Of a DNA stretch of 64,000 nucleotides, positions 3,914 through 60,672 are shown piece by piece (position 1 is the first letter of the stretch; each line of letters opens with the position of its first letter). The position numbers were made by a program, and so were the translations under genes. The notes under the pieces are model-generated. The model saw nothing but the letters and a program-made list of their open reading frames with translations. It was not told where the DNA came from and searched no databases. The stretch comes from Escherichia coli (GTDB lineage: Bacteria; Pseudomonadota; Gammaproteobacteria; Enterobacterales; Enterobacteriaceae). The DNA lies in NCBI GenBank assembly GCA_025336685.1, contig GCA_025336685.1_4717.1, one strand, 5' to 3'.

Positions 3914-5500
3914 TTAGAAGTTGCCTTTGGTAGTTACCGCATCCACCAGGTTAAACAAATCAACACTCAGCTTGTAAACCTCCTGCTGACTACGGTTGAG
4001 CAGCGGGCTGTACGCGGATGGGTTGATGTTCGGCATGGTGTACGGAATCGGTGAAGAGCCGTCAACGCTGATCTTGAACTGGCTGTCCAGGAACAGGTTA
4101 ATCGCACCACTCACCATAACCGCGTTCGGGTTGTTACCCAACATGGAGGGCAGGATATTGGTAATCATGTCGGAACGCATCTGTTCAGCAGCGCGGTTAC
4201 AATCATACCCTTTAATGAACGGTACAGCGTCAGTAACCGCAACCGCCCATTGCCCAGGCATGATGCCTAGTTCTGGATGGCCGTGGTTATCAGCAATGAA
4301 ACGGAACGACTCCAACATGCGATACGTCATCGCAGCAGGCATCATCGCAGCAAGTGATGAACAATACAGCGTTGGATAATCGATAACGTCCCAGCTCTGG
4401 CTATCGGTCGGCATCCAACCAAACTCGGTGGTTGCCGATGTACCGCGACGAGCTTCCACGTACGGGAACAGTCTTAAGACATCACGGACATGCTCGCCGA
4501 ACATCCGTTTCATATCAGCCCAACTCAGGCTACCGCTGAAGGCGAATCCCTCATCACGCATAATCGCACCGAATACCGGATGCGCAACCAACGGTTCTTC
4601 ACGAACAGCTTGAGCTGCTTCTACGTAAATATCCTCATTCTCTGCGCTACCTGGATGAGACCCGCTTTCGTACGTCTGACGAATAGCCCCGACGTTATCG
4701 AAGGCTTTTCTTAGATAGATGGTTGGGATGTTCGTATCAGCACTCGCTGGTTTGATTTTCTCCGTTGCGAAACACATTGCTGCTTCCACACCACGAAAAA
4801 CCGGTTCCGGTTGCGATTGATAGGAAGAGCGATGAACCACATCAGCGTAGGCTGGATCGAACTGCTGCATCACGTTCTGCATGGCTGGGTCCATGAACTG
4901 GTTATCAAAACCACCATTGCCTACCCAACGTGCAGTCGACGCATAAGTCAGCGTATCCTGAACACGAGTACTGAACTGAACATCACGATTAACAGGGTCG
5001 TATGCGCCAGTCAAAAGGTTCGTTGCGTCCATCGGGGTCGCGCGAACGATTTGCTTACCGAACATATCCGTTGTGGTTGTTTCGGTTACCTGGATTACAT
5101 TCGTGAAGAAGAACACCAGTTCGTTCGGCAGATCGATGGCACGTGTTGTAAACGCATCGAGGCTTACCGAATGGTCGGTGTATCCAGAAATGTAATGGAC
5201 GCGCTTGGTTCCTGGTGCAAGGGCCAAGGATTCTTCCACAGCCATCATGAAATGGAAACGACGTGTGCCCCAACCATTCGCAATCTCCGAAACCCCCTCA
5301 GGTTCTGCAGACTGCTGTAACAAACCGGTTGCAAGCTTATTGATTGCTGATGGGGTTGTTGCCGTACCGAACTTCGTCGTGTTAATAAAGTCTTCGATGC
5401 TACGCATGCTATCTGCATGGAATCGTAGTGGACGACGTTGTACGTTGTTGTACGGTGCGGTTTCAACCATCAGTATTTCACGAACATTCATCGGGATCAT
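3914..5500 (-). CDS. hypothetical protein (528 aa)
   Basis: Long ORF starting 1 nt after the stop of the upstream 5502-7088 gene, so probably co-transcribed from the promoter at 7184; no motif recognised. Confidence 0.55.
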   Translation of the reverse strand: MIPMNVREILMVETAPYNNVQRRPLRFHADSMRSIEDFINTTKFGTATTPSAINKLATGLLQQSAEPEGVSEIANGWGTRRFHFMMAVEESLALAPGTKRVHYISGYTDHSVSLDAFTTRAIDLPNELVFFFTNVIQVTETTTTDMFGKQIVRATPMDATNLLTGAYDPVNRDVQFSTRVQDTLTYASTARWVGNGGFDNQFMDPAMQNVMQQFDPAYADVVHRSSYQSQPEPVFRGVEAAMCFATEKIKPASADTNIPTIYLRKAFDNVGAIRQTYESGSHPGSAENEDIYVEAAQAVREEPLVAHPVFGAIMRDEGFAFSGSLSWADMKRMFGEHVRDVLRLFPYVEARRGTSATTEFGWMPTDSQSWDVIDYPTLYCSSLAAMMPAAMTYRMLESFRFIADNHGHPELGIMPGQWAVAVTDAVPFIKGYDCNRAAEQMRSDMITNILPSMLGNNPNAVMVSGAINLFLDSQFKISVDGSSPIPYTMPNINPSAYSPLLNRSQQEVYKLSVDLFNLVDAVTTKGNF

Positions 5501-5501
5501 T

Positions 5502-7088
5502 TTATTTTTTTCCTCTTAAATTTACTACATGTTCATTTAATCGAACAACTAATTGCACAAGCTGCTGACGGATATCTGCTGGGCAAAGCATCAATCCTTT
5601 ACGATCAGCTGGGACTTTCTCAAGGATTTCCGGACCTGCTGCGGAAACATCCCAATCCCATTCACAAAACGCATCAGCCACCATGTTAATACCGACAACC
5701 GGTAAAGTTGTACGTTCATCTTCATACATGGCATGCGGATACAATTTATTGACGGTAATGACCTCCTGTGGTTTTAACTGATGGATAATCTGGTAAACGT
5801 CGTCGCGTTTAACCTGGATACCTACGGTCAGCGCAGCCAGTTGAGGAAAACCCCAATGGTCTAATAAGCACGCTGCGATTGCTAACGCTTTTGCCTGATG
5901 TACGGCTTCAATCGGTGATAGACTTCTCGCTGGAAGATGACTATCAAGCAACCATTGTGCCAATGCTCGGCATCCACGGTTGATTGGTTTTAACTCAATG
6001 CTGTCATCATGTTTAGCGTAGGTGTATCCGTCGTAACGTTTTGCGATACGCGCATACATGTCTTCAACTTTACCGTAAGGTGCTGTTTCGTCGACGTCAT
6101 GCAACACCCGTTCCATCTGGGTAAGATACGCGATATCAAGGATGAGTACGCGTGGTGAACGTTTATCTTTCACCATCAACGCATCAATCACGCCTTGACT
6201 GTCTTCATCTTGCGCATTCCCTCGCGGCGTTTTCTCGCGAATCGGTCCGCTGAAACGTCGTTCCGTACAAAGGTTATTCACATAGCTAAAGATCAACGTT
6301 ACCAGGTGCGTACAACTCACCAACACTCCATCTTTAACGACAGGCTGTACGGCTTGGTCCAAATCGCGTACTGCGAGACGGCGAACGATGGCTTGTGAAC
6401 GCAACCAACCAGGTACTTTCTCTGTCGACATGTAATCCACCGTCATCGACAGCGTGATCTTTTTATCGCCTGTCTGTGCACGGATATAATCTTCCAGTCG
6501 GTCGTAAGCAGCGATATCATGAATGCGTGTTTTATACATCAACGACATAGCCACTTCTTCTTTACGTACCGTCCCGTACGTTTTCCCTGCGTCAATCAGA
6601 AACTCCGCCCAAATCGGCACCATCAGCCGGACGTAGATCGCTAACGCCGTTAACTCAACGTAATCGTTTCGTAAATAGGTTTTCTCAGGTATGTCATCCT
6701 CACCTAATGTTGTTTTCATGTCTGGCGGTAATTTTACCCAACCTGGGGTATTACACAACGCCAGAATCTCTTCATAGACGATCGGTTTGTAAATTTCACC
6801 GACGGCGCGGCTCAACTCCTCCATTTGTTGCTGTGGAGCAATGTAGTTATCCATCGCTTCACGTGCTTTAACGAACCCTTCGAAGATGTCGTCGATTCGA
6901 CGTGGGTTCTTTTGTTCTATCCAAGCGAGATACTTATTAATCTCTCGCATCTGATTGCTAGCCATATCCCCATCAATCTTGATGTAGCCTTGGCCTGAAA
7001 ATTCCACGGCACGTCCGTCACGATGTTTGATGAGATAGTGATCCAGCTTTTCTTTGCCTTGCGTCGTAATGACGGGCACAATGTGCAT
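5502..7088 (-). CDS. hypothetical protein (528 aa), first gene of a promoter-driven operon
   Basis: Long ORF about 96 nt downstream of a TATATTAC-type promoter motif. Confidence 0.55.
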   Translation of the reverse strand: MHIVPVITTQGKEKLDHYLIKHRDGRAVEFSGQGYIKIDGDMASNQMREINKYLAWIEQKNPRRIDDIFEGFVKAREAMDNYIAPQQQMEELSRAVGEIYKPIVYEEILALCNTPGWVKLPPDMKTTLGEDDIPEKTYLRNDYVELTALAIYVRLMVPIWAEFLIDAGKTYGTVRKEEVAMSLMYKTRIHDIAAYDRLEDYIRAQTGDKKITLSMTVDYMSTEKVPGWLRSQAIVRRLAVRDLDQAVQPVVKDGVLVSCTHLVTLIFSYVNNLCTERRFSGPIREKTPRGNAQDEDSQGVIDALMVKDKRSPRVLILDIAYLTQMERVLHDVDETAPYGKVEDMYARIAKRYDGYTYAKHDDSIELKPINRGCRALAQWLLDSHLPARSLSPIEAVHQAKALAIAACLLDHWGFPQLAALTVGIQVKRDDVYQIIHQLKPQEVITVNKLYPHAMYEDERTTLPVVGINMVADAFCEWDWDVSAAGPEILEKVPADRKGLMLCPADIRQQLVQLVVRLNEHVVNLRGKK

Positions 7089-7182: not shown

Positions 7183-7200
7183 GGTAATATAAGCGTGAAT
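7183..7200 (-). promoter_or_regulatory. phage promoter, minus-strand core TATATTAC with extended consensus (attcacgCTTATATTACC)
   Basis: Plus-strand gtaatata at 7184-7191. One of five sites sharing ttcaSg-N-YTATATTACC with an A/T-rich upstream flank, all upstream of minus-strand genes. Core matches the early promoter element reported for phiKZ-like phages. Confidence 0.6.
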
Positions 7201-12459: not shown

Positions 12460-12477
12460 AGTAATATAGCCGTGAAA
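12460..12477 (-). promoter_or_regulatory. phage promoter, minus-strand tttcacgGCTATATTACT
   Basis: Plus-strand gtaatata at 12461-12468, about 94 nt upstream of the 11903-12367 start; matches the extended consensus. Confidence 0.6.
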
Positions 12478-14257: not shown

Positions 14258-15669
14258 CTTCAGTTTAATTTGGTCGAACGTATTCCAATTTCAATCCATG
14301 CCAATCACCGCCTTTACTAATAGCGGTACTTATCGTAGTCGGATGCACTTTATGTTCTTCAGCAAGGGCGAATCTATCAGGATAGACTTTATGTGTACCA
14401 TCCTCAAACACCACCTTTACTGGGAACCTTTGTAATCCACCAGTTTTTGGTCTAGGCTCTTTAGGAATATATTTACATTCGTTCACATCGCCAGGATAAT
14501 TCCTTGTCCACCATGCTTTCCAACCGTTTCTGGAAAACATCTTATCTCCATGACATAAGCTATGACTTAATGTCGCATAGCTCACTCCCACCATTGTTGC
14601 CGCCATTACGGTACTTTCCATGTGATACTTGTCTCCATCGGGCGATATTAAAACCAACCCGCCGTAAATAACATACGACTTACCGGCATCTTCGGATGTG
14701 AAACCGACAAATTCCATTCCGTGGGTAGCCGCATCGTAATATTTCATCAACGGCCATTGTCGTGTAGTACGGAACCATTTTGAAATCTGGGTGTGTGGGA
14801 TACCGTAACACTTAGCCGCATCGCGCATACTGTAATGTTCGGTTATCTCGCCAGTTCTCAAATCCTTTATCCATACTGTTTTAGCTTTCCAGTTCAAGCC
14901 CGTACGATAGGCATGGTACGTATTTTGGGATTGACTCGTCCATTCAAGATTATCCAAGCGGTTGTTATCTTTAACTCCGTCAAGATGGTTACCTACTAAC
15001 ATTGATCCCTCAGGCAGCATAGGTTTTTCACGAAAGGTGGATAAAACAACATGATGAGCTGCTATATCTCTACCTTCATGTCTGACCCTTACATATCCTA
15101 ATACGTTAGTTTTTCCTACTTCCTCTCCAGTATAGGCATCTATAATGACACCCTCCACAGAAGCGGCAAGTCCGGGATAATCTTTACAATGGTAAAATCC
15201 TGGGAATTTTGTCTCTCTAAGTTTCATCTTCTCTCCGCTATCGGCCAACAGAGAGAAAACGTTCCTCGGAGGCCGACGTTTTCAAATTAAACTACGTTAT
15301 CGACTATATCTTCATCCTCATTGCGAGGAGTCTCCCGTTTGGGTCTGTGTTTAACAGAGCCTACTCTACTCGACATCGCGTCTTTCGATAGTCTGTGAGC
15401 ACACATCTTAACGAACATTCGTGGACTCCTAAACAGGTGAACATTCTTGTTAAGATGCTTCGCTGCGGGTTATTCCCGTCCTACCTCTTTTACCATACCC
15501 AGTTCATTACGCTGGCCCTCATCTATGTCGCCACGATGAGTTGGTGTGTAGTCCGATTACAGAAACTTCCCGTCAATTAGAGAGTTTTAACTATGTTCCT
15601 GTTACCAGAAACCCGACTCCGATGATATCAATAAATCAACGTAAGTTATTGATTTAATTGAAGAAACTG
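14258..15669 (-). mobile_element. group I intron (about 1.4 kb) with HNH endonuclease ORF in its 3' part, interrupting the beta-prime-like gene
   Basis: Minus-strand core elements: P/Q-like GGACGGGAATAACCCGCAGCG (plus 15461-15482), R-like GCTCACAGACTATCG (plus 15386-15399), S-like AAGATATAGTCG (plus 15301-15312). The 5' exon ends in U, the intron ends in G, and splicing yields a perfect NADFDGD. Confidence 0.75.
14265..15248 (-). CDS. intron-encoded HNH homing endonuclease
   Basis: HNH motif HHVVLSTF...VGNHLDGVKDNNRLDNLEWTSQSQN plus helix-turn-helix-like repeats (YGIPHTQISKWF, MVGVSYATLSHSL); sits inside the intron; TTG start with an in-frame ATG 7 codons downstream. Confidence 0.85.
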   Translation of the reverse strand: MADSGEKMKLRETKFPGFYHCKDYPGLAASVEGVIIDAYTGEEVGKTNVLGYVRVRHEGRDIAAHHVVLSTFREKPMLPEGSMLVGNHLDGVKDNNRLDNLEWTSQSQNTYHAYRTGLNWKAKTVWIKDLRTGEITEHYSMRDAAKCYGIPHTQISKWFRTTRQWPLMKYYDAATHGMEFVGFTSEDAGKSYVIYGGLVLISPDGDKYHMESTVMAATMVGVSYATLSHSLCHGDKMFSRNGWKAWWTRNYPGDVNECKYIPKEPRPKTGGLQRFPVKVVFEDGTHKVYPDRFALAEEHKVHPTTISTAISKGGDWHGLKLEYVRPN

Positions 15670-16925
15670 AAGTCGGCATTGTATCCCTTAAGGATCATCA
15701 CGCTTAACCCGATGGTGTTATCCTGCGGATCGCGTTTAACCTTGGTGATTTCAAGACATTGGTTACTGCTTCGGTCAAGTGATGGGTTTCGAACAAAACC
15801 ACACACAATCCCATCGAACGGTGTATCGGCAATAAGCTCATCGTGTAGCTCGCTCATCATCGGGTGGTAATTACGGACATGTTCCGCAACGAACGCACGT
15901 GCTGCTCTTGGTGAATAACCACGATGGAATAACTTGGATTGGATGTGTTCTTTATTGGTTAATGTAAATGGCGCGTATGGGAAATGCAGATGATAATAAC
16001 GATGGTTCGCTGTTATCGAACTGATTACGGTACGCGTGGTGAATGGGTGTAATGTACCTAATATGTTTTTACGCGTGATACCTTTCTTCTTACCGATGAA
16101 CTCATCGAAAATCGCCGAGTGGTACTGCAGCAGCTTCAGTTGTACTTTCGCCATCCAGTTTTCTTTCTTTCTGGCGCTCAAAGGTGTTGTTGGGTGATAG
16201 ATACTATTCAATGTGCCGATAGCATCGATCGCACCTTCCATTTTGCTATCTGCATAACGGCCGGTCGGTGTATTTTCGATAACGAACATCATGGCCGCAG
16301 GAAAGCTGATATACTGGCTGAAGAACTTATCACGATGGATACGGATGAATTCTCGTAGCGTGTCAACTTTCTCTGTGTTCTTCGGTCCACGTAACGTAGG
16401 TCCTTTATACAAGATCTCCATGATGCGATCGAAGTTCTGTATAAAGCTATTTACGCCACGTCGTATCCCGAATACATCGAATTGCTGCTCCAGATAGTTC
16501 TTGAGTTCGATGGGTCGTTTTACATTTGGACGGTAACTGGCATCAATGAGCCACGTCATCGTTTCGAAGCTTTTGATATTCAACTCGCTTGCCAGCACGA
16601 GATGGACCAACGGGTTAATGAACGCATCGATTCCTTCAGGGACACGCGCCCAGACCGTCGAACGAATCTCCTGTTCTGCTGGGTAGGTCACAACCGTTTT
16701 ACAGTTTGGACACACCGTGCCGAGCAGCTCACCACGATTGTAAAAACCGCATCCACATTGCGGTGTGATATCCAACGTATCGCTGGAGTAAACACGGGTG
16801 ATAAAACTGTTTAATTTCTTCTTCTCTTCGACGACTTTTGTATCGTAATCGTTCAACAAAATCGGCGTAAAGGGAAGTTCTGCGAGCTGTCTATCGAAAC
16901 TCACGATATCGAGCATGATGGCCAT
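15670..16925 (-). CDS. RNA polymerase beta-prime-like subunit, exon 1 (zinc-finger N-terminus through NADF)
   Basis: CGCGFYNRGELLGTVCPNCKTVV matches the beta-prime zinc-binding motif (E. coli [23 protein letters not shown]); GKKKGITRKNILGTLHPFTTRTVIS matches [24 protein letters not shown]; the listed ORF ends ...KGYNADF followed by SFFN-stop, which is the start of the intron. Confidence 0.8.
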
Positions 16926-17017: not shown

Positions 17018-18913
17018 TTAGAACAGGTTGAATGCCCCACCCATGTTGTTACCGCCAACATTCGGACGATCGCTACGTGCATAGATGTTGCCGGAGATGT
17101 TACCCAGACCACGAGCACGTGCTGCTGTGTTACCACGAACAGCGGTACCTGCCAGATGCTGGATGTTCTCAGGACGGATGGTGAAGCCAGCTTCGGCAGC
17201 CGCTTCAATCAATGCCGCAAGCGCATTCGGTTCGAAATCGTAACGCATTGCCCAACCGGTTTGTTCCCAGCTACCAGACAGAACGCGATCGATGATTTCG
17301 TGACGAGCAACAACACGCTGAGACATCGACATATCGGTACGGTCGAAGCTGTCTTCCCAAGCTTCTACGGTATCCGGGTTAGTGATGTTCATCATGTACA
17401 GATCGTCCATATCACGAATATCGTGACGGTGGCCATCCTGGTGGTTGTAGTGACCCAGCGGGATACGGTTACCGGTAGCGTACACTAACGGCTGGCCGTA
17501 TTGATATTTCTTGCTGAAGCAACCCAGGGTGGTATCATCGAATGCACGATAGAGTGCTTTATAGCCTTCGGAGATTTCTTGAACTTTACCGTCAACGTTG
17601 CCCGTAAAGATCTTCTCAGCTGCAGGGATCATACGCAGCAACCAGCTATATTCACCTTCTTCCGGTACATCGATAGAAATCAGCAGAGACGGATACAGTA
17701 CCTGTTGCAGGAACTTGTAAATCTGCTCGTTGGTTTGAGTAGACAGATCCAGCGGTGCGGTAACTTCCGGATCCAGTACCATTGCCAGAGCACCCGGGTT
17801 ATGAGGACCGATGCCACGAGCAGCGTTGCTGATTAAAGACTGTGCCCACGCCATACCGCTGTTCAGCGTAGCGATGGTACCAATCAGACCTAACACGAAA
17901 GTGTTCGGAGTGAACGCATCCAGCTCCAGCGGGTAAGCGCTGGTCATCACGTAACGCGGCTGGTATTGTACAGTCGGCGGTACCGGATAACCGTTAACCA
18001 GAACAGGACCTTGGTTGAAGGTCGGGTTCTGCGGGCTGTAGGTCAGGTCAATGTAACCAGTGGTTGCGACCAGGCGCTGTTGACTATCGTAATCGCTCAT
18101 CGCTTGACGGATACGGTTAGAGATAGTTACAGTGATGTCAGAACGTACTGGGTTACCGACGATATCGCTGTCCTGCATACCGCTGGTGTTGTACTGAACG
18201 CTGCTGATCGGCTGATCGCTTGCCATCATGCCCAGGTTGAACTGCGGCAGGCCCAGTTTATCGCCGAGACGGATTTCGATCGCGGTTTGGATTGCGTTAT
18301 CTGCAGCAGACAACAGGGTGGTTGCCAGATGTGCAGATTCAGCGGTGATTTCATTGGTCACCACAGCCAGACCGGCGATACGAACAGTACCATTAGCCTT
18401 ACCACCAATAGCCGCATACATTGCCGCCATGACTTCGTTGATGAACGTGCCGTTCAGGTTATCAACCCAGGTACGTGGTACCAGAATGTTACCATGCGGA
18501 CCTTGTTCTTCACGACGCGGCAGCGGAGCCAAACCGGCAACCAGCGGAAGCACATAACCGAAGAAGTGGTTATGGTCACCAACTTTTGCACCGCTCATAA
18601 CAACCAGGGTCGGATACGGTACACTGTACTGGTTAGGATCGACGGTCACCATGATGAAGTCGTCTTTGAATCCTTTATCTTCCAGTTCTTTTTCCATCAG
18701 ACGGCGGAGATTCAGTACCTGCTCGGAGCCAGTATTACGGCTAATACGACGGCTCAGTGTACGGTTGATCGTACGCATCGTATGAGTTACTTTAGGCTGG
18801 CCAGCAAAATCTGCAGCGGTTTCCAGCGCCTCATCAGCACGTTGTGCGGTGCGGGTTTCAGCTGCACGAATTTCTACATTATCGTTACCGTTATTACGTA
18901 CGTCTAAGCCCAT
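17018..18913 (-). CDS. chmA: candidate phage nucleus shell protein (chimallin-like), 631 aa; alternative: major virion protein
   Basis: Size typical of chimallin; stand-alone gene bracketed by a TATATTAC promoter (73 nt upstream) and a strong hairpin; flexible N-terminal region and G/N-rich C-terminal tail ending ...GGNNMGGAFNLF; PhuZ present in the same genome. No direct sequence confirmation. Confidence 0.4.
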   Translation of the reverse strand: MGLDVRNNGNDNVEIRAAETRTAQRADEALETAADFAGQPKVTHTMRTINRTLSRRISRNTGSEQVLNLRRLMEKELEDKGFKDDFIMVTVDPNQYSVPYPTLVVMSGAKVGDHNHFFGYVLPLVAGLAPLPRREEQGPHGNILVPRTWVDNLNGTFINEVMAAMYAAIGGKANGTVRIAGLAVVTNEITAESAHLATTLLSAADNAIQTAIEIRLGDKLGLPQFNLGMMASDQPISSVQYNTSGMQDSDIVGNPVRSDITVTISNRIRQAMSDYDSQQRLVATTGYIDLTYSPQNPTFNQGPVLVNGYPVPPTVQYQPRYVMTSAYPLELDAFTPNTFVLGLIGTIATLNSGMAWAQSLISNAARGIGPHNPGALAMVLDPEVTAPLDLSTQTNEQIYKFLQQVLYPSLLISIDVPEEGEYSWLLRMIPAAEKIFTGNVDGKVQEISEGYKALYRAFDDTTLGCFSKKYQYGQPLVYATGNRIPLGHYNHQDGHRHDIRDMDDLYMMNITNPDTVEAWEDSFDRTDMSMSQRVVARHEIIDRVLSGSWEQTGWAMRYDFEPNALAALIEAAAEAGFTIRPENIQHLAGTAVRGNTAARARGLGNISGNIYARSDRPNVGGNNMGGAFNLF

Positions 18914-18984: not shown

Positions 18985-19002
18985 GGTAATATAACCCTGA
19001 AA
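18985..19002 (-). promoter_or_regulatory. phage promoter, minus-strand tttcaggGTTATATTACC
   Basis: Plus-strand gtaatata at 18986-18993, about 73 nt upstream of the 17018-18913 start; matches the extended consensus. Confidence 0.6.
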
Positions 19003-47749: not shown

Positions 47750-47767
47750 GGTAATATAGACCTCAAC
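47750..47767 (-). promoter_or_regulatory. phage promoter, minus-strand gttgaggTCTATATTACC
   Basis: Plus-strand gtaatata at 47751-47758; matches the extended consensus. Confidence 0.6.
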
Positions 47768-52930: not shown

Positions 52931-53006
52931 TCACTTTTCCTTTTAATGTCAGAGCATCGCATTCTTGACGTACGTCAAGAAGGTACTGCGTTCAGCGAAA
53001 TAAACG

Positions 53007-53030
53007 AGCAGGGGCATGAAGCCCCCTGCT
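53007..53030. terminator. hairpin AGCAGGGG-loop-CCCCTGCT with T-rich flanks
   Basis: Inverted repeat immediately after the 53032-54255 stop. Confidence 0.5.
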
Positions 53031-53031
53031 C

Positions 53032-54255
53032 TTATTTAGCGTCGTTAAAGTAAATATCAACAGCTCGTTCCGTTGCGTAGAGGAGACCAAGATTCACAGT
53101 CCCAACCACTTCCGGTGAACCGATGATACGGTTAGCGATACTGGTGCCACTGAAGATAGCATCAAGGGTGTGCCCGTCTTCGGTTTTGTTCACACCATGA
53201 CCCACGGAAGAGACAACGGATTTCGCTTGTGCTGCGAAGGTACCCTTATCACCCATCCCCGCACCAAGGTCGTAACGCATGAAAATACGGATGGCGATCT
53301 GGTTCTCGCCTAACGGATTACCGTCTATTCTCACGTTACTGTTGTTGATACGCCCCGTCGTTGCTTCATTGAGTTTCAGTTCCTTGACGCGTTTAGCTCG
53401 CGCTTTATCTGCGTCACCGACGAGCGCCGCCATGGTTTCACTCATATCCTCAATCTGAGCGCGGTACAGCACATCGATCTGTACAACTTCACCATGAACG
53501 TCAGCACGTGGGTTATACTGACTCATACGACGTAATGCTTCAACGGCTTCCTGACTCTCATCACTCAGATCAGTTGCGATCGGTTCTTCCAGTGTTGCAA
53601 GAATAGTTCGAGGTTCAACATGATCGCCGATTTTTACGAGACCACGAATGTTGAGATGGGCGTCAACAATGAGCGTGCGGCTCTTAATCGATGGTGTTAC
53701 GAGACGATCGGCAAGATTGTCGAAGATATACGAACTGTCCTCGTGAGTCTCTGGAATATCCAGAATACCGACAAGAGACAGAACACCTGCGCGCCAAACA
53801 ACCTGACCTGGGTTCCACCAGTCGCGTTTAAAATAAAGACGATGGAAAACTACCACATCTTGATCCTTAACGCGATCCCCAACTTTATAATCGGTAATGA
53901 GGTCATGCGGATAATACTTACCTGGTCCTTTCCCGATTATCGTACCGAGTTGGAAAACCTCTTCTCCTAACTCTGGATCATCGTATTGTATCGTAAGCGC
54001 AGTTTTGGTGACCTTCTTCACAACACCATCGCCTTGGGCGGCAGCTGCGAAGAGTTTACCAACGCGATGCGCGATAACGGTCTCGCCACCAGTACGCCAT
54101 GGTTGTACATCGTAACCTTCAGCAGCAATCATGCGGTTGTGTTGGATGCCTATAAATACGAGACGCTTTGGCGGAATCCAGCAAAATACATTTACTGTGC
54201 GTCCGGATTGTTCAGATAAGGTCGTTAATCTTATCCCGGAGGCGATGATAGGCAC
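53032..54255 (-). CDS. RNA polymerase beta-like subunit, middle segment (probable 3' exon)
   Basis: [23 protein letters not shown] resembles beta [40 protein letters not shown]...[13 protein letters not shown] resembles GDKMAGRHGNKGVIS...GVPSRMNIGQILE. The listed start is GTG, and the frame stays open a few codons upstream, consistent with an exon. Confidence 0.6.
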   Translation of the reverse strand: [407 protein letters not shown]

Positions 54256-54483
54256 ACCGCCTCCCGCTTACGCTCTCACGTAAGAGCAGACTATATCACA
54301 TCTCGTCTTAGGCTTGTTTTCACAAGTCAAACGGTGCTTCTTCAGCACCTCAACGAGAGTTCACTTCTTCCCAGCGCATCCAGCGCCATTCTCTTATCCA
54401 AGGAGAATGCCTCACTCGAGGGGTACAGGGGGATGAATCCCTTAGTCGTTGAACCGTCACCCTAGAACGTTTCACAACGATCC

Positions 54484-55695
54484 TTAGGCGATTGGCTGCG
54501 GATTACCCTTGGCCTGCGGACCACGAACTTTTGTCGCGGTCAACTCTTCATTTTTAAAGCCTGCTTTACGAGCAATACGTCTCGCTTCTCGCACGTCTAA
54601 CGTTTCCGTTTCCGCTTTGGCTGAAGGCAGCATTGGGCGTCCTCGCAATTCAATGAATCTCGTCCATACGTCACCGTATAAACGGACCCGCTCTTTGTAA
54701 ACAGAATAGTAAATATAACGTTTTCCGTCAGGGAATTTAGTCATCCCATCGGACTTCAAACGGTAATTGAGTAACGTAGTAGATATACCCATTTCTTCGG
54801 CGCAATCAACGGCTGAAAGGTACAATAGCGGTACATCATTTTCAGGAATGACGACAATAGCACGTTTGTTGGTTGTCTTCTCCAACTCCAGGATACTATC
54901 TTCGACTTCCCGCCACGGCGTCTCATCAGTAACCCATTTAACTTGATAACAGCCATTAACGACAGGTTGGTTCTTGTCGTTAACGTACATCGACGCAGTG
55001 GGTAACTTAACACCAATGTGATTAGCGAATTCAGTCAATGATTCGAAAAGATGAATCTCTTTTGTTATCGTTGACCTTGCAATCACGCCCTTACTCCCCG
55101 TATCCGTCAACGTTGCTAACTCGTATTTGGTAGGAATACGCCACGGTTCATCGCCGTAATCTTTGCGGTACTGCTTACGTTCAGGAAACGCTCGCTGTTT
55201 ACCTCTATAGACACGATGATGAATGAAGTCGATATTCACACCAAGATCGCGTGCCGCTTCCGTCATGGATGGATATCTAGTTACAACACCGGTGTCAACA
55301 TCACGAACCTGAATAGGTTTACCGTAAGCAGCAATAGAACGTTTACGCATGTTCATAATGCGGGCATGCTGATTGTTCTCTTTCTGTGTAACCCATTCAA
55401 GATTGTCATTCTCTGTGTTACCGTCGGGATCAAGGTAGTTATTAAGTCTGTTGCCGTCCTTGTGGTTCACATGGAGCAAATGCGCATCATCGATGTTACG
55501 GAACGTTAACATTAGAAGTCTATGCATGGAACGGTAAACCAATGTTCCATCGTGACCTCGAAACGAATAACGATAATACCCAGCAATGATGATGGGCAAA
55601 TATTCAAACTTCGATTCCTTGTTACGCAATGTTCCATCTATGGATATCTCCAGGAACGGGAATTCCGGTACGGTCTTAAATACCTTCTCACTCAT
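54484..55695 (-). CDS. HNH homing endonuclease (intron-associated)
   Basis: HNH motif HRLLMLTF...HVNHKDGNRLNNYLDPDGNTENDNLEWVTQKENNQHA; helix-turn-helix-like repeats; located between the two beta-like segments. Confidence 0.85.
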   Translation of the reverse strand: MSEKVFKTVPEFPFLEISIDGTLRNKESKFEYLPIIIAGYYRYSFRGHDGTLVYRSMHRLLMLTFRNIDDAHLLHVNHKDGNRLNNYLDPDGNTENDNLEWVTQKENNQHARIMNMRKRSIAAYGKPIQVRDVDTGVVTRYPSMTEAARDLGVNIDFIHHRVYRGKQRAFPERKQYRKDYGDEPWRIPTKYELATLTDTGSKGVIARSTITKEIHLFESLTEFANHIGVKLPTASMYVNDKNQPVVNGCYQVKWVTDETPWREVEDSILELEKTTNKRAIVVIPENDVPLLYLSAVDCAEEMGISTTLLNYRLKSDGMTKFPDGKRYIYYSVYKERVRLYGDVWTRFIELRGRPMLPSAKAETETLDVREARRIARKAGFKNEELTATKVRGPQAKGNPQPIA

Positions 55696-55735
55696 TGACT
55701 ATATTCCTCTTGTGCAGTGATATTAACTACACTTT

Positions 55736-55750
55736 CGTAATATAGCCTTA
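55736..55750 (-). promoter_or_regulatory. phage promoter, minus-strand attaaggCTATATTACG, inside the putative intron upstream of the HNH ORF
   Basis: Plus-strand gtaatata at 55737-55744, about 42 nt upstream of the HNH start. Confidence 0.55.
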
Positions 55751-55770
55751 ATTCTGTTTACATTGAAGCC

Positions 55771-58700
55771 TTAATCATCTCTATCAGCAGCAGGTACTGC
55801 AAGTGCTGATGTACTCATTATTGACGAGCTACCATCCGTTTTCTCGTCGTAGGGTTTCGTTTCACCGTATACAGACACAATGTTTGCGTTAGGTGCGAGG
55901 TAAGCAGAAATACCTACATCCCCACTATCCTTCGTACCTTCGGATACAACACCAATGTCCGACTTGTCGTATTCACGATCGCGTGCGCGTCGAAGCGATG
56001 TCTTTGAACGCCCCCCGATACCGGTCATCGTTGCTTCTTCACCCTGCTTGATATCCAGCATCGGGTTGGTTTCATCGATCACGATGGAAGCGCTGTCGTC
56101 GAGAATTTGGTTCCAGACACTCACTGGACTGATTGAGATTTTCTGGCGGTTTCCTTGACTGCTGTTCTCGTTTTGACGAATAGCGCTAACCAGGTCCTTA
56201 TACACCAGTTCGGCGAACTTATCGTACGTTTTAAAACGTTGGTAGTTCACATCGTTCGTGTTAGGTGCCCAGTCATCCAGAAGCAGTTCAACAGCACGCA
56301 GTAACAACATGGCGAAATCGGTAGGTTCTCCCATGTTCTGTAGCAACGTACGGCTCACCGGATCGATGAAAAGACGCTCCATGAGTTCAAGTTCGCGTAA
56401 ATGGCGAACCTTAAGTCCAGCACCATCGACAACGTTAAAATAGATATCTCGATTGTCAAAAGCACCGCGAGCGTAACCGATGTAGTTACGGTACTCGTTG
56501 AACCCACCCAACAGCAACGTCGTCATGCGATCGTCTTTACTGAAGATCAAACTTTCGTCGTCAAAGCTCACCGCGAATTCATCGGGTGCTAGACCCATAC
56601 GAGAGCCGCGAGGTACCGTACGATAGTTCGCTTTAAGGTGTTCTAATAACGGGGTAAGCCCACCCAGATAACTTAGAACAACACCGACCGGAATACGTAC
56701 ACCCATGAATTCAAGATCGGCGGCTTCGATCGGCATCTTAGCCGCATTGATACCGAAGAAATCAGGGAACGTCCCTACAGGTGTTGGTGTTTGTCCTGAC
56801 TGACAGATATAGAGCTGATTGCGTTCATCGATTGCTAAGAATTCACCCAACGTGTTACGTGCAAACGTCAGGAGCCCTTCGGCTAACTGTTCGTTGAACC
56901 GATCTTCCCCAATGAACTCCGGCAATGTCTTTATATCGAGACGTATATCCCAATCAGCGAATTGGATTTGGGTATAGTTGCGTGCAAGCACTGCGAAGTA
57001 ATACGGGACTTTGACAGCCGGATCAAAGACGTTACCGCGTTTTAACGTGGTTAAGGGTGAGGACTTATCGTAATACATCGCCGTAAGTTGACGTGTTAGC
57101 CAACGACCCGCATTATTAACGACGCGCTCTGAACGTTTAACAAACACCTTACCGTAGGCGGTACTCAATGCAACTTCGGATGACGATACCTTTCTAATAG
57201 GTTTATCGACGCGTTGTTTACGCATCCGGTACTTGATGCCGTTAACGACATAAATGCCGTCCTTACGAACCTTCGGTAACATCACCGGGAACGTGGTCGG
57301 GACACCGCCTACGGGGGCCAGTTTAATCGTGATGACTTGATAATCCCCCATCACGTCAACAACATCTTCGACTTTATATCCCGTGACTGGGTAACCTGCC
57401 TGCTGTACCGCAACAACAGCAGCTGCGATGTCCTTTTGCATTACGTGTTCGACGTAATGTTTATCCCACACCGCAAGCGTCGATTTACATAAGCTCTTAT
57501 CGACGATAACGTCCGCTTCCGGCATAACCTTTGCGGGAGCTAATTTCGCGGCTTTTGGTTTAACTTCAACATACTCAGCAAGTGTTAATCCAGAACCGTC
57601 GGGTGCTTCGATTTCATGGATGGCGTCAGCGTTACGCATCGCTGCTTTATATTGGACGCCACTTAACTGCCCCGCATCCGCCAGATCGCCCGCGCGTACC
57701 AACACCGCATCCGATAACGACTGAATATACTCACCGTGTGTTTTTGGTAACGTTGTCGCGTCAAAGACATCAACCTTTTCTTCTTCGGTATCGTCAGTAA
57801 CGACTTCGAAGAGATCGTCGGTAATGTCCTGATCTTCATCAGGTTGGAAATCCGGTTGTACTTCTACCCCGGGTACTTCACGGACATCTTCGAACGTGCG
57901 TTCTACAACGGCGTTCCATGCATCAGCGTCATCGTCTTCATCCGACCCACCGACCAACTCCGCTTCTAACTCATCGGGGTCAAGAACAGTGGCCAGATCC
58001 TCACCGTTAGGAAGCACGACGTCACGATCGTCGTACTCCGCATCCGGGTTGTCGGTAAGAATATCTCGCTCTTGACGAAGAACCTGTTCCTCTTCTTGTT
58101 TCTGTTCTTCTTCATTCGCGCTCTGCGACCACAAACGTGTTACCGCCATCATCCAACGACGTTGGAAGGTTTCAAGTGTCGTTTTGTCGAGTTCTTCCCC
58201 TTCCTTTACAAGCCCGGTACGCCATTCCTCCAGCAGGCCGAGATTCAACGTAAAGAAGTACACACCGTCTGTAAATACAACGTTAAGCTTATCCAGCGTG
58301 GCCCTGTCTAACGAAGCCATCGTGCTGTTCTCACGATCGGTTCCCAACCAGCGGAAGAAGTCAAAGAACGACAGCTCCTCCGGTGTGGCGAAATTCATGA
58401 GGTTGTTACGGGTCGGTGCCTGTTGTGTGGTACGCATCAACGAAATCTTCGGCAATGTTGACGGTAAACGGAACAACAAAAAGTGTTGACGATCGCTTTG
58501 TTGTGCGATTTCGTTGGCTTTCGACCAAATTGTTTTACGTACGTTGAACCATTCATCATACCAACGGGTGAGCGTTGGACGATAGATGTACATGTGGTTA
58601 AGATGCGCGTAGTTAGCAACGATCTGAGCGTTGATGTTTTTCTCCACCGTACTTAGATCGGTAACCAAACGAAAACGACGATGCGATGCACGATAATCCA

Positions 58701-58980
58701 ATTTCGCTCGTGGAAGTTGGAATCGTTGATCGCGTCGAGGTGCGCCTTGTTTGGTTGCGAGATCATCAGCAAACGAAATCCATAGTTGAGCATTTTCTTT
58801 ACTCAGCATGTATTCGTTTTCTGGAGGACCTATCAATGAAGGATCCGTTGCGGTGTAATGATAGACAGCATAACGCGGCAGCTGCAATAGCTGCACTAAA
58901 CGTAATCTTGGTGATAGTAGCTCTTGGTAGCGTCTGACACCGAACTGTCGGTAGTAATCAAGGTATTTAAGTTTTGCCAT
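55771..58980 (-). CDS. RNA polymerase beta-like subunit, N-terminal segment (probable 5' exon), 1069 aa with acidic insertion
   Basis: C-terminus SEGTKDSGDVGISAYLAPNANIVSVYGETKPYDEKTDG aligns with beta region D ([37 protein letters not shown]); contains a D/E-rich insert. Confidence 0.65.
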   Translation of the reverse strand: MAKLKYLDYYRQFGVRRYQELLSPRLRLVQLLQLPRYAVYHYTATDPSLIGPPENEYMLSKENAQLWISFADDLATKQGAPRRDQRFQLPRAKLDYRASHRRFRLVTDLSTVEKNINAQIVANYAHLNHMYIYRPTLTRWYDEWFNVRKTIWSKANEIAQQSDRQHFLLFRLPSTLPKISLMRTTQQAPTRNNLMNFATPEELSFFDFFRWLGTDRENSTMASLDRATLDKLNVVFTDGVYFFTLNLGLLEEWRTGLVKEGEELDKTTLETFQRRWMMAVTRLWSQSANEEEQKQEEEQVLRQERDILTDNPDAEYDDRDVVLPNGEDLATVLDPDELEAELVGGSDEDDDADAWNAVVERTFEDVREVPGVEVQPDFQPDEDQDITDDLFEVVTDDTEEEKVDVFDATTLPKTHGEYIQSLSDAVLVRAGDLADAGQLSGVQYKAAMRNADAIHEIEAPDGSGLTLAEYVEVKPKAAKLAPAKVMPEADVIVDKSLCKSTLAVWDKHYVEHVMQKDIAAAVVAVQQAGYPVTGYKVEDVVDVMGDYQVITIKLAPVGGVPTTFPVMLPKVRKDGIYVVNGIKYRMRKQRVDKPIRKVSSSEVALSTAYGKVFVKRSERVVNNAGRWLTRQLTAMYYDKSSPLTTLKRGNVFDPAVKVPYYFAVLARNYTQIQFADWDIRLDIKTLPEFIGEDRFNEQLAEGLLTFARNTLGEFLAIDERNQLYICQSGQTPTPVGTFPDFFGINAAKMPIEAADLEFMGVRIPVGVVLSYLGGLTPLLEHLKANYRTVPRGSRMGLAPDEFAVSFDDESLIFSKDDRMTTLLLGGFNEYRNYIGYARGAFDNRDIYFNVVDGAGLKVRHLRELELMERLFIDPVSRTLLQNMGEPTDFAMLLLRAVELLLDDWAPNTNDVNYQRFKTYDKFAELVYKDLVSAIRQNENSSQGNRQKISISPVSVWNQILDDSASIVIDETNPMLDIKQGEEATMTGIGGRSKTSLRRARDREYDKSDIGVVSEGTKDSGDVGISAYLAPNANIVSVYGETKPYDEKTDGSSSIMSTSALAVPAADRDD

Positions 58981-58983
58981 GGG

Positions 58984-60672
58984 TTAGGCTCCACGAGGTC
59001 CCGTTAAGTTGCGTAATAGGAACGCAACCGTATCGTAACCAATATCAATGTTGAATTTATTTTTACCACTTACCCAGAAAGCTCGCTTCTTGTGCGAGTT
59101 GGTAATTTCGTCAATGGCTTCCATGGAATAAAGAACGTTAACCGAGACCGTATCACCATCAAAGTCCCCGCCAAGTCCGGCGAGGTATGGGGCAGGGACA
59201 ATAGTCGTTTCTACGAACGAAGCATTAGGTAACCAGTCAGGGTATTCCCATGCGATAAATCGTTCATCCGTTATTGGTTCCCAGTTACTATCCAGTTCGG
59301 TTTTCGGTTTTGCGGCGACGGTTGTACGCGCATAACAGGTTAACGGGATAACGGATTGCATACCCGATACCGGATAACGTGTTACCATTGCAGCCAGGTT
59401 ATTCCAGTACTTATATCCGGCGATGTACACTAATTCGGTATACGTGATGGGGTGAACATCCGCACCAGGTTTATTCAACATTTCTGGGGGTAATTCACTC
59501 ATACCACGGAACAGTCGAAACGAATCATTGTTCACATAGACGAGGCAAAGATAACGTCCATTAACCATGATAGGTTCGTTACGCACGCCTGGATCGCTTA
59601 AGGTGTTCAATAAACGTTCTATTCCGTCCCATGTCGTAAAGTCATCGATGGTGTCTGGATCAAGCGTGACGCGTTCACGTTCCATCGTTTCGGTATCGAT
59701 AAGTTCAACTTCTGTAACATCACGGACAAATATTTCCTGCAAAATCCCCGTACGTAACGCATGTTGCGTCACGGGTAGGGCGGCTTTGCTCATCTGGTAT
59801 AACCCTAACTGAACTGCAGTACAGGAAGGCTGGTTGGGCGATCCTAGTACCTCCGTTGTGGGGTTAATTGCCGAAATAACGTTACGGGTTGAGTTCCAAA
59901 CACGACGTGAGCCGAACTTCCCTTGAAAGATCCCTTTCTTACCTTGGAACATATCCAACAACAAAGCGTAGATATCGTTAAATGTTCTCTGTAAGCTCCA
60001 GCGTTGGCCGTCGTAAACGGGATCGGAATAATCTTTTAATCCATCGGGGACGGTGTTAGAAATTGCAAGGAAACGACGATACAACTCCGTGATTTCTTGC
60101 TCGCTTTCATACCCGCCTTCTTTTACTTCTATTTCACGTAAGCCCGCAGGTAAAACCAGTAAGTGACGGGTCATCGCTTTGAACATGTTCTCTTCGACAA
60201 CTTTAATTCGTAGCTCTCGTTGAGCTGAACCCGTTGAAACGAACTTGATATCCGCGACGTGTTGTGCAAAGAACCCGTACCCTGTCTGTCCTGTTAACGC
60301 ATCAGACGCAACGAAATCGCGTTGTTCAGGATCCCACCGAGCGTACGCCTTCCCCGACATGATATCACCATAGAGGTGTTTTAATCGAATGAGGCGGTCG
60401 TAAATGACAGGATGCAGGATTTCAACTTTGCATTCAATCACCGCAAATCGACGGTCTCGATCTTCACTACCTGCACTACCAAAGATGGTGTAAGAATAGA
60501 AACCATCATCGTGGAAATTACCGGTGCTTGGGTCACGAATGCTCATGCTCGTGATCTTGGGGAGAAAACGTAACTGTTGTTTATCGAGGTGTAAAATACT
60601 AATATTAAACGGCTCTCTGACTTTAGCCATGGAGACACTCCTCTTTACCACCACCGGCTGCGGCGGTATCAT
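58984..60672 (-). CDS. RNA polymerase beta-prime-like subunit fragment with catalytic DFDGD motif
   Basis: GGDFDGDTVSVN matches NADFDGDQMAVH; GKKGIFQGKFGSRRVWNSTRNVISAINP matches [27 protein letters not shown]. No zinc finger in this copy. Confidence 0.75.
   Translation of the reverse strand: MIPPQPVVVKRSVSMAKVREPFNISILHLDKQQLRFLPKITSMSIRDPSTGNFHDDGFYSYTIFGSAGSEDRDRRFAVIECKVEILHPVIYDRLIRLKHLYGDIMSGKAYARWDPEQRDFVASDALTGQTGYGFFAQHVADIKFVSTGSAQRELRIKVVEENMFKAMTRHLLVLPAGLREIEVKEGGYESEQEITELYRRFLAISNTVPDGLKDYSDPVYDGQRWSLQRTFNDIYALLLDMFQGKKGIFQGKFGSRRVWNSTRNVISAINPTTEVLGSPNQPSCTAVQLGLYQMSKAALPVTQHALRTGILQEIFVRDVTEVELIDTETMERERVTLDPDTIDDFTTWDGIERLLNTLSDPGVRNEPIMVNGRYLCLVYVNNDSFRLFRGMSELPPEMLNKPGADVHPITYTELVYIAGYKYWNNLAAMVTRYPVSGMQSVIPLTCYARTTVAAKPKTELDSNWEPITDERFIAWEYPDWLPNASFVETTIVPAPYLAGLGGDFDGDTVSVNVLYSMEAIDEITNSHKKRAFWVSGKNKFNIDIGYDTVAFLLRNLTGPRGA

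Follow-up and report, generated by a model that had tools for sequence, protein, structure and literature searches.

A Goslar-like jumbo phage with a putative mobile group I intron, encoding an I-HmuI-type HNH endonuclease, in its virion RNA polymerase beta gene

The 64,000-nucleotide (nt) stretch of DNA analyzed here (contig GCA_025336685.1_4717.1 of the Escherichia coli assembly GCA_025336685.1; hereafter, the window) derives from a nucleus-forming jumbo phage with ~95% identity to Escherichia phage Goslar. On its minus strand, a gene for a beta-like subunit of the virion RNA polymerase is interrupted by ~1.6 kb of DNA that encodes an HNH endonuclease. We argue that this insertion is, with high confidence, a mobile group I intron carrying an endonuclease of the I-HmuI type. 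The coordinates that an earlier note, made from the sequence alone, had given for the three open reading frames (ORFs) of the locus were all confirmed: 55771-58980 (1069 amino acids, aa), 54484-55695 (403 aa) and 53032-54255 (407 aa, GTG start), each on the minus strand. The principal features, in the direction of transcription, are as follows.

55774..58980, minus strand: exon 1 (1069 codons) of the gene for the beta-like virion RNA polymerase subunit; its last codons read ...PAADRDD and its last base is U at 55774
54172..55773, minus strand: predicted group I intron, 1602 nt, beginning UAAGGC... and ending ...GGAUUCCG, terminal G at 54172
54484..55695, minus strand: putative HNH homing endonuclease ORF, 403 aa (Pfam, PHROG 59 and I-HmuI matches)
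53032..54171, minus strand: exon 2, 379 codons plus stop
53006..53031, minus strand: terminator-like GC-rich hairpin directly after the exon 2 stop codon

In Goslar, the corresponding gene, gp207, is a single uninterrupted gene of 4347 nt (1448 aa) annotated as 'RNA polymerase beta subunit'. Goslar aligns to the region at 94.9% identity in two pieces that cover 73% of the query: the window matches gp207 up to position 55788 and then again from 54169, and the uncovered gap of ~1.6 kb corresponds to the intron with its endonuclease gene. Exon 1 is 94.4% identical to the 5′ part of gp207 and exon 2 is 95.7% identical to its 3′ part. Consistently, the two exons match consecutive halves of the same protein family profile, PHROG 3148 ('RNA polymerase beta subunit'): exon 1 covers profile positions 2-1050 of 1424 (E 1e-290) and exon 2, taken from 54171, covers positions 1051-1420 (E 4e-120), so that the match continues unbroken over the junction. 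Excision of the insertion in silico yields an intact reading frame of 4347 nt, which aligns to gp207 without a single gap (94.6% identity, 23 residues differ). The claim of the earlier note that a beta-like gene is split at this locus is borne out by these comparisons, and the alignment of the joined exons, which it had proposed as a check, places the junction at 55774/54171 (here and below, the slash marks a splice junction). Its description of exon 1 held for the ORF itself and needs a minor correction at the end point, which had been set right after beta region D: the exon extends 19 codons beyond '...DEKTDG', up to '...PAADRDD', where it is stopped by a TAA formed from the first three bases of the intron. 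The 1069-aa and 407-aa ORFs thus likely represent one protein of 1448 aa (...DRDD-PKRLVF...), and their separate annotations are likely errors.

By sequence comparison, the host gene is a virion RNA polymerase beta-like subunit, homologous to phiKZ gp178 and Goslar gp207. No Pfam matches were obtained for the two beta exons or for the adjacent beta-prime-like gene, and a PDB sequence search with the spliced beta protein returned nothing significant; the beta identity therefore rests on PHROG 3148, on the annotations of Goslar and of phage PhiPA3, and on published work (PMC11620839). The hairpin that follows the stop codon of exon 2 has a perfect 9-bp stem with T-runs on both strands, which gives it the appearance of a bidirectional terminator; the Goslar annotation likewise places a terminator there.

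The exact intron boundaries were set against the intron-less Goslar allele. Goslar reads ...AVDRDD GKRLVFVG..., whereas the window reads ...AADRDD, TAA, ~1.6 kb of insertion, and ...PKRLVFIG. Only one junction combines a kept reading frame with a U at position -1 and a terminal intron G, namely GAUGAU/UAAGGC...GGAUUCCG/CCAAAG, and the boundaries were accordingly placed at 55773..54172. The predicted ligated junction reads ...AGAGAUGAU/CCAAAGCGU... (for comparison, the Goslar gp207 site is GTAGACCGTGACGAT/GGAAAACGTCTGG) and the ligated protein contains ...AADRDDPKRLVF... Introns are found at the same site in PhiPA3, Serratia phages 2050HW and Kodama, and Vibrio phage C-ZP2022, in all of which the GAU/...G/ boundary pattern is repeated: the upstream exon ends in GA(U/C) GAU, the conserved "DD" codons, and the intron, which follows directly, ends in G, as it does at 54172 in the window and in all same-site homologues and variants. 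These exon and intron ends recur in the metagenomic contig L016, and each of the six same-site introns that were examined follows a U at -1. Junctions 1-2 nt away were rejected because they no longer combine the terminal G with the U at -1, and so was the 3′ splice position homologous to that of PhiPA3 (...CUGAACAAUCCG/GAC, ~54206), which leads to an immediate in-frame stop. An intein was likewise rejected, given that the insertion is out of frame and opens with a stop codon.

A local Rfam search of 53800-56200 recovered a full-length alignment to the group I intron model RF00028 (model positions 1-253) at 54267-54709 on the minus strand. Its score of 49.4 bits (E 5.9e-11) misses the RF00028 gathering score of 50 by 0.6 bit, a shortfall that can be attributed to large insertions in L5 and P7.1/7.2. 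The shortfall also explains why the search of the whole window at gathering thresholds missed the beta-gene intron and returned a single group I intron elsewhere, at 15281-15660. The same-site introns of PhiPA3 and 2050HW score 67.8 and 82.6 bits, respectively. The alignment, which is the covariance-model check proposed in the earlier note, comprises the conserved catalytic core P3-P9, including the guanosine-binding helix P7, and the Q-, R- and S-like elements and the P8/P9-like hairpins that the note had picked out all fall on the appropriate helices.

54267..54709, minus strand: ribozyme core P2-P9 (RF00028 alignment)
54641-54650, minus strand: P4 5′ strand (RF00028 alignment)
54494-54504, minus strand: Q, AATCCGCAGCC, aligned to P4 3′/P6
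54440-54454, minus strand: R, GTTCAACGACTAAGG, aligned to J6/7-P7 5′
54367-54441, minus strand: P7.1/7.2 region (RF00028 alignment)
54301-54358, minus strand: P8 (RF00028 alignment)
54286-54297, minus strand: S, GATATAGTCTGC, aligned to P7 3′
54267-54286, minus strand: P9 (RF00028 alignment)
54172..54266, minus strand: 3′ peripheral extension with P9.1, P9.2, a variable terminal hairpin and the terminal G
54236-54266, minus strand: P9.1 hairpin, holding the GTG pseudo-start and a Shine-Dalgarno (SD)-like GGGAGG
54215-54235, minus strand: P9.2 hairpin with the conserved UAACGA loop
54175-54209, minus strand: variable terminal hairpin, an extra element of the window family, flanked by the conserved CUGAACAAUC segment and the terminal G

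Given this core, we infer that the insertion is a group I intron, for which guanosine-dependent self-splicing is predicted. The pattern of sequence variation points in the same direction. Among seven independent sequences, namely the window and six metagenomic contigs (L004-L009; see below), ~375 nt of the ribozyme core (54705 to ~54330) are identical in all; the positions that do vary lie in the P8 loop (a 19-nt indel), P9, P9.1 and the terminal hairpin, and the substitutions there leave the pairing intact. The P9/P9.1/P9.2 layout is common to PhiPA3, 2050HW, Kodama and C-ZP2022; the UAACGA loop of P9.2 is conserved, and the stems that close it differ from phage to phage by fully compensatory changes (GAUAAG/CUUAUC, GAUAG/CUAUC, CUUAGG/CCUAAG and GGAAG/CUUCC).

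The structure of the 3′ extension bears directly on the GTG at 54255, at which the 407-aa ORF begins. Exon 2 starts 84 nt downstream of this codon, at 54171, so that the 3′ splice site lies at 54172/54171 and not, as the earlier note had it, upstream of the GTG. The note was right to regard the GTG as a pseudo-start, which falls together with the SD-like GGGAGG inside the P9.1 hairpin; the open frame that it saw further upstream amounts to just four codons, bounded by a TAA at 54268-54270. The 28 codons that follow the GTG have no counterpart in Goslar gp207, and two of the contigs, L005 and L008, have 22 additional nt at the 3′ end of the intron, so that the GTG is out of frame with exon 2 there. 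As judged from these sequences, the GTG and the 28 following codons are intronic and not conserved coding sequence.

A different explanation of the same ORFs would be that the gene is genuinely split, with the two segments translated separately (the second from the GTG at 54255) into two subunits and the endonuclease gene being a free-standing insertion. Polymerase subunits of jumbo phages are indeed commonly split into separate genes (PMC7598289), the SD-like sequence is located just upstream of the GTG, and gene callers annotate the 407-aa ORF. However, the GTG and its SD-like sequence are buried in a strong hairpin, the additional 28 codons are absent from gp207, and exon 2 is conserved even though the 22-nt length difference in L005 and L008 destroys the GTG frame. 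Furthermore, the break falls in a motif conserved in all homologues, it is intron bases that terminate exon 1, a complete group I core lies exactly between the two beta segments, and the gene is continuous in Goslar, the closest relative. A gene of split organization would be expected to show a conserved start and ribosome-binding site as well as a conserved split point. When a 255-aa query spanning the junction was compared with phage genomes, 288 phage records were matched, and 269 of these align to at least 80% of the query in one piece, indicating that the gene is mostly continuous or holds only a short insertion; the putative start in the window lies within a hairpin. A genuinely split gene is therefore highly improbable.

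The position of the endonuclease ORF within the ribozyme depends on the location of the P1 helix. The 78 nt that separate the 5′ splice site from the endonuclease ATG were initially searched for an internal guide sequence. A scan for U-G-anchored pairings in four introns (those of three phages and the variant L005) produced only 5-6 bp candidates, none conserved in position (in the window, at intron positions 47 and 75), and this placement was dropped in favor of a GGUC located after the ORF. This tetranucleotide at 54685..54688 on the minus strand is a tentative candidate for the 3′ strand of P1, able to pair with GAU/U at the 5′ splice site. An RGUC sequence occurs just upstream of P2 in every same-site intron, and in phiKp_32 (a Klebsiella phage with an intron 10 nt further downstream), C-ZP2022 and Kodama the candidate guide varies in step with the end of the exon.

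Window: 5′ exon end GAUGAU, candidate guide GGUC (54685-54688)
PhiPA3: 5′ exon end GAUGAU, candidate guide AGUC
2050HW: 5′ exon end GAUGAU, candidate guide GGUCA
Vibrio C-ZP2022: 5′ exon end GACGAU, candidate guide GUCGUC
Kodama: 5′ exon end GACGAU, candidate guide GUCG
phiKp_32 (site 10 nt downstream): 5′ exon end GGU, candidate guide GGCC

In the ORF-less intron of Serratia phage BUCT660, a GGGUCG is found ~36 nt after the 5′ splice site, which is the normal position for the 3′ strand of P1. Because the candidate guide lies just upstream of P2 and sits canonically in BUCT660, we tentatively place the endonuclease ORF in loop L1, with its last ~75 codons running through P2-P6.

The product of this ORF matches PHROG 59 ('HNH endonuclease', E 5e-38) and the Pfam domain NUMOD1 (34.3 bits versus a cutoff of 22.8); I-TevI_DNA-bd (25.8 bits) and I-HmuI_NUMOD-like (18.9 bits) are found below their own cutoffs, and HNH_3 is weak. 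Its only significant PDB match is I-HmuI, the nickase encoded by the SPO1 intron (1U3E, E 2e-5). These matches substantiate the HNH endonuclease that the earlier note had placed between the exons, and the NUMOD-type DNA-binding modules lie C-terminal to the catalytic domain. Among phage genomes searched with tblastn, the strongest match by E-value is PhiPA3 gp210 (36.5% identity, E 5e-47). His78, which aligns with gp210 His82, is invariant, as are N98-L-E-W and N107, so that the NLEW...N pattern is kept. The C-terminal ~75 codons (54484-54709, minus strand) are encoded by the ribozyme helices P2-P6, including a 140-nt insertion in L5, and are invariant in all seven sequences; the endonucleases of PhiPA3 and 2050HW end before P3, and the homologue on a further metagenomic contig (L016) also runs into the core. 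The protein is, in all likelihood, an endonuclease of the I-HmuI type with an intact ORF and conserved catalytic residues, from which nicking of the intron-less allele can be predicted.

Evidence of recent mobility comes from closely related genomes. An identical endonuclease protein is encoded on 11 public contigs from different sequencing runs, six of which (L004-L009, metagenomic and Goslar-like) served for comparison with the window. In the six contigs, identity to the window amounts to 98.9-99.5% over the 5′ part of the intron, which includes the endonuclease ORF, whereas it is 94-96% over exon 1, exon 2 and the downstream genes (exon 2 up to 97.8%); the retrieval of the contigs by exact identity of the endonuclease protein biases this comparison towards high intron identity, while leaving synonymous sites free to differ. 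Even so, the synonymous sites of the ORF have diverged far less than the flanks. Against Goslar, the window differs at 30 positions in the last 100 nt of exon 1 and at 8 in the first 50 nt of exon 2, compared with a gene-wide mean of 2.7 mismatches per 50 nt. Most intron-plus genomes, by contrast, share the final ~93 nt of exon 1 with no or almost no differences. L005 turns from Goslar-like to window-like at about -93, and L006 is a mosaic nearer to the junction. The footprint of mismatches is that expected of homing with co-conversion from a more divergent donor; both presence/absence polymorphism and co-conversion of the flanking exon, the marks by which mobility would be recognized, are found in the sequences.

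Two sub-lineages of the intron can be distinguished. L005 and L008 differ from the window at 54150-54210, where their terminal hairpins are different and where 6 of 18 positions in the first codons of exon 2 have changed, all synonymously (CCAAAGCGTCTCGTATTT versus CCCAAGAGATTGGTGTTT), which suggests independent homing events or donors. Moreover, the presence of a near-identical intron in genomes that have diverged by 4-6% suggests an ongoing sweep through Goslar-like E. coli phages. An exact-match scan of IMG/VR for the 5′ junction gave zero matches. A search of a large protein database with exon 2 led to L016 but returned only nine distant proteins and no close relatives, too little to gauge how common intron-plus and intron-minus alleles are among Goslar-like phages.

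It could also be envisaged that the intron splices but is an immobile relic, its endonuclease inactive or decaying, and that the distribution reflects old events or intron loss in Goslar. Loss of the endonuclease does occur in this family, as ORF-less introns are found both at the DD site (BUCT660) and 10 nt downstream (Aeromonas phage PS1). In addition, the HNH motif of the window protein contains an unusual insertion of eight residues (residues ~94-101; 55393-55416, minus strand), located between the N-H-x-D-G-N and N-L-E-W halves and absent from all seven aligned homologues. A relic would nevertheless not be expected to show ~99% identity of the 5′ intron and its ORF among genomes whose flanks differ by 4-6%, nor sharp co-conversion tracts with distinct breakpoints in L005 and L006, and the ORF is intact with its catalytic residues conserved. 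The Goslar site bears no scar and differs from the intron-plus flank at 30 of 100 positions, which fits recent import from a divergent donor better than it fits loss. Immobility of the intron is thus improbable.

The endonuclease probably has its own early promoter inside the intron, of the type used by the virion polymerase. The promoter-like TATATTAC that the earlier note had seen upstream of the gene is present at 55737-55744 on the minus strand and matches the early-promoter consensus of chimalliviruses.

55730..55754, minus strand: early-promoter-like motif GAATTAAGGC-TATATTAC-GAAAGTG, core 55737-55744, 42 nt upstream of the endonuclease ATG
55697..55747, minus strand: predicted hairpin (RNAfold)
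7184-7191, 12461-12468, 18986-18993 and 47751-47758, minus strand: other copies of TATATTAC, intergenic, upstream of minus-strand genes

The window contains five copies of TATATTAC, all on the minus strand, versus a chance expectation of 2.0 (at least five copies were reached in 8 of 100 shuffles). ORFs of at least 120 aa leave 12.8% of the window uncovered, and all five copies fall in this fraction (f^5 = 3e-5). Each copy is followed, at a distance of 42-130 nt, by a minus-strand start codon, in one case that of the gene for the nuclear shell (chimallin-like) protein (17018-18913; PHROG 4795). They share a flanking consensus, A/T-rich...TT.A.GG(C/T)-TATATTAC, followed in three of the five by GTG five bases after the motif. 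A full-text literature search for TATATTAC alone yielded only irrelevant papers, whereas its combination with phiKZ and 'early promoter' led to the consensus table: the early-promoter core of phiKZ and the consensus of 201phi2-1 (PMC7058600, Table 2) correspond to the copies in the window. Such motifs are described as early promoters of the virion polymerase, centered near -10 (PMC7598289). The four other copies are probably early promoters of the phage.

In the RNAfold prediction, GGCUAUAU (55740-55747), which overlaps the promoter core, pairs with AUAUAGUC (55697-55704), a segment placed between the Shine-Dalgarno sequence GAGGA (55705-55709) and the endonuclease ATG. Analogous hairpins occluding the ribosome-binding site precede the endonuclease ATG in 2050HW, PhiPA3 and phiKp_32. 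We tentatively consider that the endonuclease might be timed apart from its host gene, for which late expression is presumed because the product is part of the virion: only early transcripts initiated at the internal promoter in loop L1, lacking the occluding strand, would be translatable, and, if so, the endonuclease would act as an immediate-early weapon and homing device. Conversely, TATATTAC might be one strand of an intron hairpin and no promoter, the endonuclease being translated from read-through pre-mRNA. The motif does form the 5′ strand of the predicted hairpin, its five copies are few given the shuffles, and a similar hairpin in the Goslar gp206 intron keeps the same GAAAGUG loop without the exact motif, so that the element may be partly structural. 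The strand and intergenic bias of all five copies, the A/T-rich consensus upstream and the GTG downstream in three of them, their joint match to the published 201phi2-1 and phiKZ consensus, and the copy ahead of the nuclear-shell gene all speak for promoters, and we regard a purely structural role as somewhat unlikely.

Several observations weigh against parts of the interpretation offered here and deserve to be set beside the evidence in its favor. The RF00028 score falls just short of its gathering threshold; the candidate P1 of the window comprises only 4 bp, and no complement to the start of exon 2 that could form P10 was found. The insertion in the HNH motif, the mode of retrieval of the contigs and the motif-less hairpin of the gp206 intron, all described above, belong on the same side. 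The in-frame excision in silico at a boundary shared with other phages, the core alignment and the footprint of co-conversion nonetheless leave a mobile group I intron as the strongly favored explanation.

The junction-spanning survey shows that the site is occupied repeatedly. In ~19 of the 288 records the match is split by a large insertion, including those of PhiPA3, 2050HW and C-ZP2022, and at least five of the listed records carry ORF-less insertions of 340-500 nt, such as BUCT660 and Aeromonas PS1 (RF00028 scores of 37.5 and 35.5 bits, respectively). The layout of exon, endonuclease and exon is the same in PhiPA3, Serratia 2050HW, Serratia Kodama, Vibrio C-ZP2022 and L016, a metagenomic contig with 66% identity to the window in the exon 2 protein; in PhiPA3 it comprises gp211 (exon 1), gp210 and gp209 (exon 2), together homologous to the uninterrupted phiKZ gp178. 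The DD site is thus occupied in phages of Pseudomonas, Serratia, Vibrio and Escherichia and in an unplaced metagenomic lineage. A second intron family lies 10 nt downstream of it, after DD(P/S)KR, in Klebsiella phiKp_32 (L011 ~4800-6190), with an HNH ORF 29% identical to that of the window, and in Aeromonas PS1 (L015 664-1054), without an ORF. As far as the sequences tell, two distinct introns target adjacent positions of one motif, and both site families occur with and without an endonuclease ORF. The BUCT660 intron (L014 660-1043) is an ORF-less intron of the Kodama type at the DD site from which the endonuclease has been cleanly deleted from loop L1; it fits the cycle of gain, decay and loss described for homing endonuclease genes. 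The survey and the work on PhiPA3 (PMC11620839) agree with the proposal of the earlier note that polymerase genes are hotspots for such elements.

Three polymerase introns are polymorphic within the Goslar group. The window has the beta-gene intron and Goslar lacks it. The adjacent beta-prime-like virion polymerase gene with the GGDFDGD catalytic motif (58984-60672, minus strand) is, in turn, uninterrupted in the window and split in Goslar at GGD/FDGD by a group I intron of ~2 kb (RF00028 67.7 bits) with the HNH ORF gp206 (L001 773-2817). L004 and L008 have both the gp206-type and the beta-gene introns, and L006, L007 and L009 the beta-gene intron only. The third intron is the one detected at 15281-15660 in the window (RF00028 50.3 bits; within 14265-16925, minus strand). 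The polymerase gene that holds it adjoins the nuclear-shell gene, and the intron directly follows a 423-aa exon with a match to PHROG 2987 ('RNA polymerase beta subunit', positions 1-419 of 478); its HNH ORF of 327 aa (14265-15248) lies 3′ of the ribozyme core, not 5′. Goslar has the same intron (gp247 with an Intron_gpI feature and the HNH gene gp186), and the match there covers only 72% of the query; ~1 kb, possibly the endonuclease, differs or has been replaced. Goslar gp247 is annotated as weakly similar to the beta-prime subunit. The PHROG 3148 gene would belong to the virion polymerase and the PHROG 2987 gene to the non-virion polymerase. The earlier note was thus correct in seeing two HNH introns in RNA polymerase genes of the window, though not in calling these the two largest subunit genes, as the two belong to PHROG 3148 and PHROG 2987, the latter with a 423-aa exon and a profile of 478 positions.

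Collectively, the following course of events can be proposed. The host gene would be transcribed through the intron, and the ribozyme, with its P3-P9 core, P7.1/7.2 and extended P9.1/P9.2, would fold and splice, joining ...GAU GAU to CCA AAG... to give a message for the 1448-aa protein. The HNH/NUMOD endonuclease of the I-HmuI type, encoded probably in loop L1 by an ORF that runs into the core and expressed probably from its own early, virion-polymerase promoter in the intron, would nick intron-less alleles near the DD codons in co-infecting relatives. Repair would then copy the intron together with ~90-100 nt of the upstream and ~25 nt of the downstream exon.

What is new here is modest: such an intron occurs in E. 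coli phages, its sequence bears signs of recent homing, two adjacent sites are occupied time and again, a candidate early promoter is coupled to a hairpin occluding the ribosome-binding site, and Goslar and the window phage are reciprocal in their intron content. Goslar lacks the intron in beta and has one in the beta-prime-like gene, and the opposite is true of the window phage; the two amount to a naturally occurring reciprocal pair whose host is tractable. Should the sweep be real, such an intron-plus/intron-minus pair of ~95% identity could serve to separate homing from interference competition in E. coli.

The intron belongs to a known class and, by sequence, occupies exactly the site of the PhiPA3 gp210 intron, the first shown to confer a fitness benefit on its virus (PMC11620839). 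Gp210 nicks the intron-less PhiPA3 junction and phiKZ gp178, its H82R mutant is inactive (PMC11620839), and it benefits PhiPA3 in co-infection (PMC11620839; Birkholz et al., Science 2024). An effect of the window endonuclease on co-infecting phages, as the earlier note suggested, would match this work by analogy; nicking and interference have been demonstrated for gp210, whereas the window element is known from sequence. The two elements have in common the host gene, the GAU GAU/ site, the order of exon 1, endonuclease ORF, ribozyme core and exon 2, the aligned catalytic His, and the P9/P9.1/P9.2 tail with its UAACGA loop. They differ in host genus (E. coli, in a Goslar-like phage, for the window), and the proteins are only 36% identical; the window ORF is 73 aa longer and reads through P2-P6, the L5 insertion is much larger, an extra variable hairpin precedes the 3′ splice site, and an exact early-promoter motif lies upstream of the ORF.

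I-HmuI of SPO1 resembles the window endonuclease in having an HNH domain followed by NUMOD-type modules and in being encoded in a phage group I intron. It homes with co-conversion of flanking markers (cited in PMC12908238). Its host gene is a DNA polymerase, however, and the protein is much shorter (174 aa), with low sequence similarity. Intron-encoded endonucleases with separate expression signals also have a precedent in the td intron of T4, where an intron-internal phage promoter lies just upstream of the I-TevI ORF and, in read-through transcripts, the ribosome-binding site is masked by a hairpin. The window intron resembles this arrangement, with the distinction that the occluding hairpin is predicted to take its 5′ strand from the promoter core itself; moreover, I-TevI belongs to the GIY-YIG enzymes and is expressed late, from a T4 late promoter, whereas the window encodes an HNH enzyme behind a motif of the early, virion-polymerase type. 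Finally, the two Intron_gpI features of Goslar and the introns of phiKZ with ORF72 and ORF179 are likewise group I introns with HNH ORFs in polymerase genes, at catalytic motifs, but they reside in genes and at sites other than those of the beta-gene intron, and phiKZ gp72 and Goslar gp206 are only 23-27% identical to the window endonuclease.

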